From Bacillota bacterium (lineage in GTDB: Bacteria > Bacillota > Sulfobacillia > RBS10-35 > JAJYVM01), in contig DATLTP010000199.1 of NCBI GenBank assembly GCA_035533535.1, forward strand, positions 1 to 62,345: a stretch of DNA of 62,345 nt. Reading direction: 5' to 3'. How positions within the stretch are numbered: the first letter of the stretch is position 1; the number at the start of each line of letters is the position of its first letter. The translations under genes were made by a program, and so were the position numbers. The notes beneath the pieces are model-generated. The model did no database searches, was not told where the DNA came from, and worked only from the letters and a program-made list of their open reading frames with translations. Below, piece by piece: positions 1 through 1,547 of the stretch.

Positions 1-1547
1 AGATCCCGTCCAAGCACCGGCAGCTTCTGCTCGCCGCTGGGCCAGGAACGGCTGCCCGCCAGGCGCTGGGCGTGGGGGTGGTCCGCCCAGACCGGTCGAA
101 TCTGATCCAACTGTGCGCGACCTGACGCGGTGACGGTCCACACGTCATGGCGAGTGACGATTGGCTTGCCACGCACGGGCGCGGAGACGGCCCCCCGCCG
201 GCGCCGGCTGACGCCGGCCTGGACTCCGTGGCTGAGCAGCAGGTACTGGAGGTGCGAGGCCAGCTCGCGCGAGACCGTGGTCCAGGTGATCCGCCCGCGC
301 GACAGCGTGCCGTCGCCCCTCGTGTACGCACGGAGGAACGCCGCCTGCAGCGCCGGTTCCACGTTGAAGACCAGGTCCGGGATGCGCTTTTCGTCCGCCC
401 CTCGGGCACCCCCATACAGGGCGCGAACCAGATGGTGCAGGACTCGATTGCGCAACGCCAGCTTGACGCACCTGCGGTCTTCGTAGCGGCGCGGCCGAAT
501 GCCGAAGGTCCGGACGATGGCCGCTTCGACCTCGTCGAGCATGGCGCCGTCCCCGGGCCCAAAGCTCAGGGAGATCCCGTCGCGTCGCGAGTTCGTTCCC
601 TCAGCGGTGTACCAGCCGAGAATCGTCATCAGGTCGGCGTTCACTGGAATCGTCCGCGGGATCGCCCGGTCGGTGTGCTTTTCGGGGGAAAGCCACCCGT
701 CCTCGGGTCGGCTCGCATCCTCGGGCCTCAGTTCGTGCAGGTCCAGCCACGGCTTGACCTGGTTCCGACCCGAGCCCCGGTACTGGGTGGCCCAGACGGT
801 CTCCAGCGACGACTGGCCGACGACGGCCTGCTGCAGGCACTCGTCCAGGGACAGGCCCAGCGCGGCGACGTAGGCGGAGAAGCGGCTCAGGGTCGGCCGG
901 CTCCGTCCCTTCTCCCACGCGTAGAAGGTGACCGGCTGGCGGATGCCGGCGGCCCGGCAGACGTCCTGTTGGGACAATCCCCGTGACCTGCGCGCCTCAG
1001 CCAGCCGCCGGCCCAGCTCCGTGGGGATGCTCACGCGAGGCTCGGTCCGCTCAAGCGGCTGGGCCATGCGCACCCGCTCGCGCTGGATCGCTTCCGCCAG
1101 CGGGCCCCGCACCCAGAGGCGGTCGGGGATGGTCCGGCTGGCCCCCACCAGCGCGCCCAGGACATCCAGGGCCACCACGCGGCGGCTCATCGCCGGCAGA
1201 GGCAGCGATCGCGGCGCCATGACCAGGTCGCCCACCGCGAGCTCGTCGGCGCGCTTGAGCATGGGCCGACCGTTCTCCCAGGTAAACACGCTGTGCCCGG
1301 CCGTGACCACGACCCGGCGTCCATATGCGGTGACGACTTCGAGTAGCGGCTCTTCCGCCCGGTGCCGGATCACGTTGCGAATCGCCTTGAAATCCACGGC
1401 CTGCGTTGCGAGGTCGAAGCAGAGTACCTCGAAGGTTCGGAAGTCGAGCTCGCCCGCCATGCACCGGTCGATGAACGGACCCACGCGGACGGCGAGCACG
1501 ACGCCGCGCGCGTCGCGGACGAAAGCGACCTCGTCCCCGTCGACGCT
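1..1547 (-). mobile_element. Large intein (Hint domain plus LAGLIDADG homing endonuclease) inserted in the GyrB TOPRIM motif; C-terminal splice junction is outside the window
   Basis: After ...YHKVVIM the frame does not continue with the universal TDADVDG. It reads [17 protein letters not shown] (block A-like, Ser1), then [15 protein letters not shown] (TxxH block B). LAGLIDADG-type motifs follow: [14 protein letters not shown] (~594..635) and [16 protein letters not shown] (~306..350). At least 515 aa are read with no return to GyrB sequence. Confidence 0.85.

Follow-up and report, generated by a model that had tools for sequence, protein, structure and literature searches.

An XRE-type helix-turn-helix domain within a family of GyrB inteins, a probable accessory module for DNA recognition

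The contig DATLTP010000199.1 of a Bacillota bacterium of the Sulfobacillia (assembly GCA_035533535.1), which we analysed from position 1 to 62,345 (the window), begins inside a gyrB gene that is interrupted by an intein. We found that this intein carries a helix-turn-helix (HTH) domain of the XRE/Cro-C1 type between its Hint splicing domain and its LAGLIDADG endonuclease, at residues 173–241 of the intein (825..1031, minus strand). We think it probable, at roughly 70%, that this domain serves as an accessory DNA-recognition module for homing, built into a mobile LAGLIDADG intein. Sequence comparison and structure prediction lead us to this view, because helix 3 of the domain is conserved across phyla, because the endonuclease residues are intact alongside it, and because helix 3 differs from one target clade to the next.

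The initial annotation of this stretch had placed a 62-residue peptide at 834–1019, inside a GyrB intein, and the minus-strand translation of this interval (intein residues 177–238) gave exactly that peptide. It lies in frame and free of stop codons within one continuous reading frame, which starts with a GTG at 3020 and runs to position 3, where it leaves the window. The plus-strand reading of 834–1019 is ruled out by a stop codon. A separate, nested XRE gene is ruled out as well, since the HTH is in frame without a stop from 3020 to 3 and is collinear in all homologues. The N-terminal extein of gyrB (1548..3020, minus strand, 491 codons from the GTG, assigned by Pfam and translation) encodes the ATPase, the transducer and the first part of Toprim. 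Its frame matches HATPase_c, DNA_gyraseB and columns 1–62 of the 96 columns of Toprim in Pfam, and the Toprim match ends at the intein junction. The gene is broken after ...ARYHKVVIM, the intein opens with SVDGDE..., and the insertion point is the Toprim DxD motif of gyrB, which reads ...IM/S1...(H)N/TDADVDG... when the junctions are marked by slashes. The exteins of homologues resume with TDADVDG and continue into GyrB_C, so that the element is an in-frame insertion inside a conserved host motif.

The window contains the first 515 residues of the intein (3..1547, minus strand), identified by Pfam matches to Intein_splicing (36.8 bits) and LAGLIDADG_3 (45.2 bits) together with AlphaFold2 and Foldseek. 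Full-length homologues have 560–589 aa; the last 55 or so residues, with blocks F and G, and the C-extein of gyrB fall beyond position 1, where the homologues continue as ...VYDFSV...CxHN/TDADVDG. At its N-terminal end the element shows the features of a class-1 intein, with S1 directly after ...KVVIM and block B as T82-A-G-H85, and both LAGLIDADG helices hold their acidic residues (ILGWYTAE316GT and FLRAYTRGD412GT). The Hint N-terminal subdomain ends at about residue 118–120 (...APRSLPLP), and from residue 304 the first LAGLIDADG helix follows. The distance between them is therefore about 185 residues and not 62, as had been stated initially. The HTH sits mid-way in this interval, flanked by a conserved pre-HTH segment of about 50 residues and a conserved post-HTH segment of about 60.

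When the HTH was searched against Pfam as an isolated 75-residue segment, it matched HTH_31 with 43.8 bits (cut-off 27, E 3e-11), HTH_3 with 38.5 bits (cut-off 23, E 1e-9) and HTH_19 with 33.8 bits (cut-off 30.2). The NCBIfam matches were generic XRE relatives only, namely RstR, HipB-type, DicA and PuuR. An AlphaFold2 model of the 515 intein residues, calculated with 35 homologues, reached a pLDDT of 90.2 and a pTM of 0.86, and in this model the HTH consists of five predicted helices (176–189, 193–200, 205–212, 220–229 and 234–240) at pLDDT 95–98. A separate AlphaFold2 model of residues 125–300 gave a pLDDT of 94.5. Nearly all of the 50 best PDB matches that Foldseek returned for this accessory-region model are XRE-family DNA-binding domains, and the XRE domains superpose with an rmsd of 1.6–2.2 Å over about 62 residues at a probability of 1.00. 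Among the structural matches of the HTH are C.AhdI, ClgR, DdrO, HipB, C.BclI, SinR, P22 c2 and MBF1/EDF1. Judged by profile and by predicted fold, the segment is a bona fide XRE/Cro-C1 HTH, matched far beyond chance, and the Cro/C1 HTH_3 pattern that had been read from the letters is confirmed. The similarity to a free-standing XRE reading frame of the same window, noticed by eye at the same time, is real, with 37% identity over 62 residues (pairwise E 2e-9), and is of a generic, family-level kind only. This frame (49702–50025, plus strand, 107 aa) lies between the reading frames 47977–49626 and 50034–51125. We reject a special relationship between the two, such as recent capture of the module from the host, because 37% is a family-level value and because phyla far apart have conserved the module.

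Within the domain, conservation is concentrated in the turn, the recognition helix 3 and the following loop (residues 201–219, 891..947, minus strand). In a set of 35 homologues that had been chosen by whole-intein similarity, 12/19 near-invariant columns of the accessory region are located in helix 3 and the loop (G201, I202, R203, Q204, P205, T207, Y209, W211, E212, G214, R217 and P218). The 14-residue stretch of the recognition helix is the most conserved segment of the intein family. Among 71 dereplicated sequences, one of them that of the window, the top-residue frequency averages 0.87 for helix 3 and loop (part of this stretch also served as search pattern, as weighed below), against 0.52–0.64 for Hint-N, the pre-HTH segment, the whole HTH, the post-HTH segment, the endonuclease and the post-endonuclease segment. 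Conservation is also 95% or higher for S1, T82 and H85 in these 71 sequences.

A search with the intein returned 36 relatives, all of which except the weakest are GyrB inteins with 37–50% identity to the query, coming from Chloroflexota, Rhodothermales, Gammaproteobacteria, Gemmatimonadota, Binataceae and Euryarchaeota. Many of them hold precomputed matches to PF13560, PF01381 or PF12844, and one carries the NCBI name 'helix-turn-helix domain-containing protein'. The weakest relative (P0036) is an intein in UDP-glucose dehydrogenase that has no HTH. It aligns to residues 4–160 and 296–444 of our intein, with 47 residues in between where the window intein has 135, and the HTH therefore looks like an insertion. 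Two further members of the family bear on the coupling of HTH and nuclease. P0014 has lost the HTH and both catalytic residues, and P0031 is without the HTH and keeps both catalytic residues, so that co-decay of HTH and nuclease is represented by one case each way.

For the wider distribution we scanned the GTDB representatives, with one genome per species, using the accessory-region alignment. This collection has 184 stretches with the pattern GI[RK]QP[VI]T[FY]Y, 181 of which are confirmed relatives, corresponding to at least 181 carrier species or about 0.1% of the species genomes. The bacterial carriers belong to Bacillota, Chloroflexota, Pseudomonadota, Gemmatimonadota, Actinomycetota, Nitrospirota, Elusimicrobia and Saccharibacteria, and three archaeal groups are present (Methanobacteriota, Methanosarcinales and Micrarchaeota). 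Cultured bacteria with the intein include Macromonas bipunctata DSM 12705 (L061) and Thiorhodospira sibirica (P0010). Counts at the level of loci rest on 80 loci kept from these pattern-found relatives. DADVDG follows about 360 aa downstream in 77 of the 77 kept loci whose contig is long enough, which places all of these inteins at the same gyrB site. Of 78 loci with both LAGLIDADG motifs, 77 retain the two acidic residues (the exception is L047). The closest inteins in the reference genomes come from two metagenome-assembled genomes of Bacillota/Clostridia, with an identity of only 57% for the intein and of 64.5% for the GyrB N-extein, so that the lineage of the window is missing from the GTDB species genomes scanned. 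Intein and extein identity correlate weakly (r = 0.27), as would be expected of a horizontally moving element, and the spread across phyla at a single site is, as far as sequences can tell, typical of an element that is actively homing.

The 72 complete loci read ...IM/SVD...xN/TDADVDG, where x is H, K, S, Q, A or L and the +1 residue is T, or S in one locus. Most loci have His as the penultimate residue, but a considerable minority (L010, L034, L036, L044, L048, L052, L057, L063, L068 and L070–L076) has Lys, Ser, Gln, Ala or Leu, with junctions such as ...AAKN/T, ...CASN/T, ...VAQN/T, ...VAAN/T and ...GHLN/T. These residues suggest a variant splicing chemistry or variant kinetics inside one intein family. 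Some gyrB genes hold two or three inteins; one locus (L019, 2–5740, plus strand) has inteins at EVVDNS/, at GDSAGG/CFSGD...HN/SAKQ and at the Toprim site. No HTH was found in the inteins that these gyrB genes carry at the sites EVVDNS/ and GDSAGG/. In L006, L008 and L024 the intein at the GDSAGG site contains a large insert in which an HNH-like motif, HCHHxDFxKxNNNPxN, can be recognised by eye.

The module is also present in inteins of other hosts. An exhaustive search with a profile of the accessory region returned 2141 matches at E ≤ 1e-3, of which 146 reached E ≤ 1e-10 and 23 reached E ≤ 1e-30. Many of the matches listed cover the HTH part only, several per protein, and look like multi-HTH proteins; the distant matches that span the whole module are mostly GyrB. 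One of the proteins with the complete module, P0154, is a type IA topoisomerase (TopA) with the intein at FIVA/SVDYNE...CCHN/TDYDLEGE. Its intein is collinear with the window intein over the full length (28% identity, E 1e-54), and its Toprim match stops where that of GyrB does, at HMM column 62. Because it is the same Toprim column, the sequences indicate that one intein lineage occupies the homologous DxD site in two topoisomerase families. A search with the P0154 intein gave a second topoisomerase case, P0199, whose host was assigned by eye because its N-terminus resembles that of P0154. Additionally, three FEN-1 proteins of DPANN archaea (P0200–P0202, with XPG_N/XPG_I) contain a collinear intein at ILVG/SVD(H/Y)NE...CCHN/TDYN.GG that is 34–37% identical to the TopA intein, with full coverage in P0200 and P0201. 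The GyrB, TopA and FEN-1 hosts share a C-extein that starts with TD[AY][DN], and the FEN-1 insertion may record an ectopic move of the lineage to short target motifs of a similar kind. A divergent GyrB-like clade (P0104, P0108 and P0146), inserted at IIC/SVD...HN/SDADTDG, carries the module as well. The HTH_3 scores are 31–34 bits for P0104 and P0108, 24–43 for TopA and 16–21, below the cut-off, for FEN-1, where the HTH is degenerate with a 4-residue deletion in helix 2. P0146 has a sub-threshold HTH_31 match only. P0108 shows a second HTH (HTH_17, 28.8 bits, residues 1056–1106) between endonuclease and Hint-C, so that its nuclease is flanked by two HTHs; P0104 has a segment that resembles it by eye, for which Pfam reported none.

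When the clades were aligned, scaffold residues of the module (R171, R186, W211, E212, P218 and Y226) stayed constant, and helix 3 was clade-specific. It reads GI[RK]QPVTFYAWE in the GyrB clade, xVQQACSISEWE in the divergent GyrB-like clade, GVSQP-TIVCWE in TopA and LSSN-TLYGWE in FEN-1. A helix that is invariant among inteins with a shared target and divergent between targets is what a DNA-reading helix should show at the sequence level, and from this conservation within and variation between clades we infer that the XRE HTH binds double-stranded DNA sequence-specifically through helix 3. More tentatively, evolution of the HTH may have let one intein lineage colonise the TDxD/N sites in GyrB, TopA and FEN-1; we regard this as possible, and as more probable than any function of the domain beyond homing.

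In our proposal, the Hint domain would splice the intein from GyrB after translation and thereby restore the Toprim DxD motif. Splicing is expected because S1 and T82-x-x-H85 are conserved and because the homologues possess the terminal Asn and Thr+1. The freed intein would then act as a homing endonuclease, whose LAGLIDADG domain, through E316 and D412, would cut a gyrB allele that lacks the intein, at the point of insertion; the patchy cross-phylum distribution at one site indirectly supports such cleavage. Helix 3, with R203, Q204, T207, Y209 and their neighbours, would enter the major groove adjoining the cut site. By contacting DNA outside the core of about 20 bp, the HTH would make the recognised site longer, increase the affinity and help to position the enzyme, in a role functionally akin to that of the DNA-recognition region of PI-SceI or of the accessory domains of PI-TkoII and TliVMA. 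The idea of the initial annotation that the HTH extends homing-site recognition thus fits the conservation of helix 3, the intact endonuclease and the clade-specific helix 3, while its premise, DNA binding, is one that we infer.

Several points weigh against this proposal. XRE regulators normally bind palindromes as dimers. LAGLIDADG inteins are pseudo-dimeric monomers, and here a single copy of the HTH is present per intein, in a monomeric enzyme and with no evident dimerisation domain. The two HTH-less family members point in opposite directions, as P0031 has kept both catalytic residues and P0014 has lost them. In TliVMA the accessory domain lowered, and did not raise, the specificity, so that 'extends recognition' may be too simple a description (PMC8966425). 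DNA binding is argued from patterns in the alignments and from a model of the protein alone. Finally, the conservation of residues 201–209 among the 80 loci is inflated, since these loci were retrieved with exactly that pattern; W211, E212, G214 and P218 were not part of the pattern and nevertheless reach 95% conservation or more, and the 35 homologues, an unbiased set, agree.

The most likely of the alternatives is a moonlighting regulator, in which the free intein, or a degraded descendant that no longer cuts, binds operator-like sites and regulates genes of the host or of the element, as WhiA does. Repressors and antitoxins (RstR, HipB, HigA and DicA) are indeed the closest sequence relatives of the domain, WhiA (3hyi) is a structural neighbour of the endonuclease part, and database fragments are labelled 'transcriptional regulator with XRE-family HTH domain' (P0045). 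Nearly all members, however, retain the catalytic acidic residues and so are not domesticated, and the distribution is patchy, with a horizontal spread over about 0.1% of the species genomes instead of vertical inheritance in a clade. Moreover, helix 3 co-varies with the targeted host gene, and no candidate operator was identified. We thus consider this alternative unlikely, and the earlier suggestion that the excised intein works as a regulatory protein gained nothing in its support. More generally, a function beyond homing seems improbable to us, be it that the excised intein is a WhiA-like DNA-binding regulator with an active nuclease, or that DNA binding by the precursor gates splicing and the activation of the gyrase Toprim.

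Somewhat less likely still is a structural relic, an XRE domain that was captured once and is now a folded spacer between Hint-N and endonuclease making no contact with DNA. This would account for the degenerate HTH of the FEN-1 relatives, with its helix-2 deletion and HTH_3 score under the cut-off, and for the intact endonuclease residues of the HTH-less P0031, and it can be reconciled with the observation that deletion of the accessory domain in TliVMA did not abolish cleavage (PMC8966425). A spacer would, however, keep buried scaffold positions and not a run of residues in the recognition helix, and the helix-3 positions that distinguish the clades hardly vary across phyla within the GyrB clade. 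Ser1, Thr+1 and non-His penultimate residues are often associated with slower, regulatable splicing, and the intein of the window and its relatives use Ser1 and Thr+1, some with a non-His penultimate residue. An HTH that, in the unspliced GyrB precursor, couples splicing at Toprim to DNA, by analogy with the RadA intein that is stimulated by single-stranded DNA, would agree with this, with the insertion into the catalytic DxD motif of a DNA-binding enzyme and with the conditional splicing of inteins in DNA-metabolism proteins that is documented in work cited in PMC8987985, but it is the least likely of the alternatives, since nothing in the sequence ties the HTH to the splicing centre, the HTH adjoins the endonuclease in the chain, and FEN-1 and TopA inteins with the same module and a different helix 3 favour sequence-specific target recognition.

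Accessory DNA-recognition, the reading that we prefer, can be compared with known systems. An accessory domain is an extra folded domain beside Hint and endonuclease, and residues 121–300, which are confidently modelled, form such a domain. In this respect the GyrB intein is like TliVMA (7qss) and PI-TkoII (2cw7), which carry an extra domain on a Hint and LAGLIDADG intein (PMC8966425). In TliVMA, deletion or exchange of accessory domains alters DNA binding and the choice of the cleavage site (PMC8966425). Beyer et al. (2022, PMC8966425) described the accessory domains of TliVMA and PI-TkoII as HTH-like, hypothesised that such domains were captured from transcription factors and help inteins to reach new sites, and attached the repressor domain of phage 434 to TliVMA to make an artificial accessory domain. 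The module of the GyrB intein differs from those of TliVMA and PI-TkoII in being recognisable as XRE by sequence. Its position also sets it apart from TliVMA and PhoVMA, which have the accessory domain between endonuclease and Hint-C, whereas the HTH of the GyrB intein lies between Hint-N and endonuclease. Foldseek with the whole intein gave PI-TkoII as best match (2cw7, E 5e-18), together with TliVMA, PI-SceI and PI-PfuI, and PI-TkoII is the best match of the whole intein by sequence as well as by fold. It aligns at Hint-N (query 34–124) and at the endonuclease (query 298–444), with a comparable unaligned stretch between them, and it has about 134 residues from Hint-N to the first LAGLIDADG helix. 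The module may share a remote similarity with the region 136–269 of PI-TkoII. Homology to the solved accessory domains (TliVMA, PhoVMA, the PI-PfuI stirrup and PI-TkoII) was not found, as the profile search gave no match to them and the 50 best fold matches of the module contain no intein chain.

The initial annotation had likened the position of the HTH to that of the accessory DNA-recognition region of PI-SceI-type inteins. The position between Hint-N and LAGLIDADG, where some inteins carry such regions, holds; the fold is unlike that of the PI-SceI region. In both cases an accessory region, DNA-contacting in PI-SceI and presumed to be so here, is N-terminal to the endonuclease, and extension of the site, demonstrated for PI-SceI (PMC8966425), would be the corresponding function in the GyrB intein. 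The region of PI-SceI, however, is inserted into the Hint fold itself and does not belong to the XRE HTHs. PI-SceI matches the whole-intein model only in its Hint and endonuclease parts, with a TM of about 0.3, and homology to its DNA-recognition region is not supported, since no PI-SceI chain appears among the 50 best matches of the accessory model or in the profile search. The engineered TliVMA with the 434 repressor domain (PMC8966425) also joins a Cro/C1-type HTH to an intein homing endonuclease, and the GyrB family is the natural counterpart of it. Unlike that synthetic protein, in which the HTH follows the endonuclease, the GyrB module is natural, ancient and conserved and precedes the endonuclease. 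WhiA likewise combines a LAGLIDADG fold with an HTH. It is a domesticated, catalytically dead transcription factor without Hint and with a different, C-terminal HTH, whereas the intein keeps its catalytic residues and its splicing domain. The tethering of a nuclease to a small HTH that supplies site recognition is furthermore known from the C-terminal HTH of I-TevI and from NUMOD1; these enzymes are GIY-YIG or HNH nucleases, are not inteins and use another HTH family.

The remaining parts of the intein, all on the minus strand, can be described as follows. The Hint N-terminal subdomain (residues 1–120, 1188..1547), with the nucleophile Ser1 and T82-x-x-H85, aligns to PI-TkoII 45–135. The pre-HTH segment (residues 121–172, 1032..1187), delimited by model secondary structure and conservation, consists of small strands and a long helix (strands 126–128, 144–147 and 170–173, helices 129–135 and 149–162) with conserved D128, G148, R171 and V172. 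The post-HTH segment (residues 242–300, 648..824; pLDDT 82–95) joins the HTH to the endonuclease and has conserved S246, L248, W252, Y256, N262 and V264; a PDB match of its own was not found by Foldseek with the accessory-region model. The LAGLIDADG endonuclease domain (residues 301–450, 198..647), defined by LAGLIDADG_3, alignments and Foldseek, comprises the two motif helices with E316 and D412, aligns to PI-TkoII 270–416 and to TliVMA 137–299, and is also matched by Foldseek to I-DmoI and I-Tsp061I. The post-endonuclease segment toward Hint-C (residues 451–515, 3..197), cut by the window edge, is modelled as strands (444–475) and helices (477–497), with the pLDDT falling to about 60 at the truncated end.

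Upstream of gyrB, the region 3329–8600 (minus strand) resembles, from the positions of its reading frames as judged by eye, a standard replication-origin neighbourhood, with a dnaA-like frame (6457–7824), a dnaN-like frame (5087–6205), a small frame (4869–5090), a recF-like frame (3799–4872) and a frame at 3329–3709, followed by gyrB. The GC content falls to 0.644 and the GC skew switches sign at about 6–8 kb, and the origin oriC is therefore probably located near 7.9–8.6 kb.

A word-indexed search with the accessory-region alignment returned short fragments only. Fragments of the accessory region (P0045, P0042, P0013 and other short entries) come from truncated contigs or split gene calls, and in public sources they are labelled 'transcriptional regulator with XRE-family HTH domain' (P0045) or 'helix-turn-helix domain-containing protein'. 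The XRE-regulator labels on intein fragments are likely a systematic misannotation, which is a practical point for annotation.

In summary, we describe an XRE HTH inside a GyrB intein and its relatives. The general principle, an accessory DNA-binding domain of a homing intein, is already known, and the XRE type is a variant of it. Full-text literature searches found no paper that describes an XRE or HTH_3 domain in an intein, so that the XRE type is apparently undescribed. The novelty is nevertheless smaller than suspected initially, since HTH-like accessory domains as such are known (PMC8966425) and homologues of the intein have been tagged automatically with PF01381 or PF13560. Apparently undescribed are the XRE ancestry, the extreme conservation of helix 3 and the collinear lineage over GyrB, TopA and FEN-1 with its clade-specific helix 3. 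Endonuclease-bearing inteins carry accessory domains of diverse kinds, and for the origin of these domains and their part in the choice of target the GyrB intein family offers a natural case, verifiable by sequence, in which the transcription-factor-capture idea of Beyer et al. (PMC8966425) can be tested. Sequence statistics place its accessory domain in the commonest bacterial repressor family, and the best-conserved part of the element is the recognition helix. The combination of a LAGLIDADG nuclease with a swappable XRE HTH may also provide a modular scaffold for meganucleases. The GyrB, TopA and FEN-1 relatives, which differ in helix 3, form a comparative series on how a homing element is retargeted.

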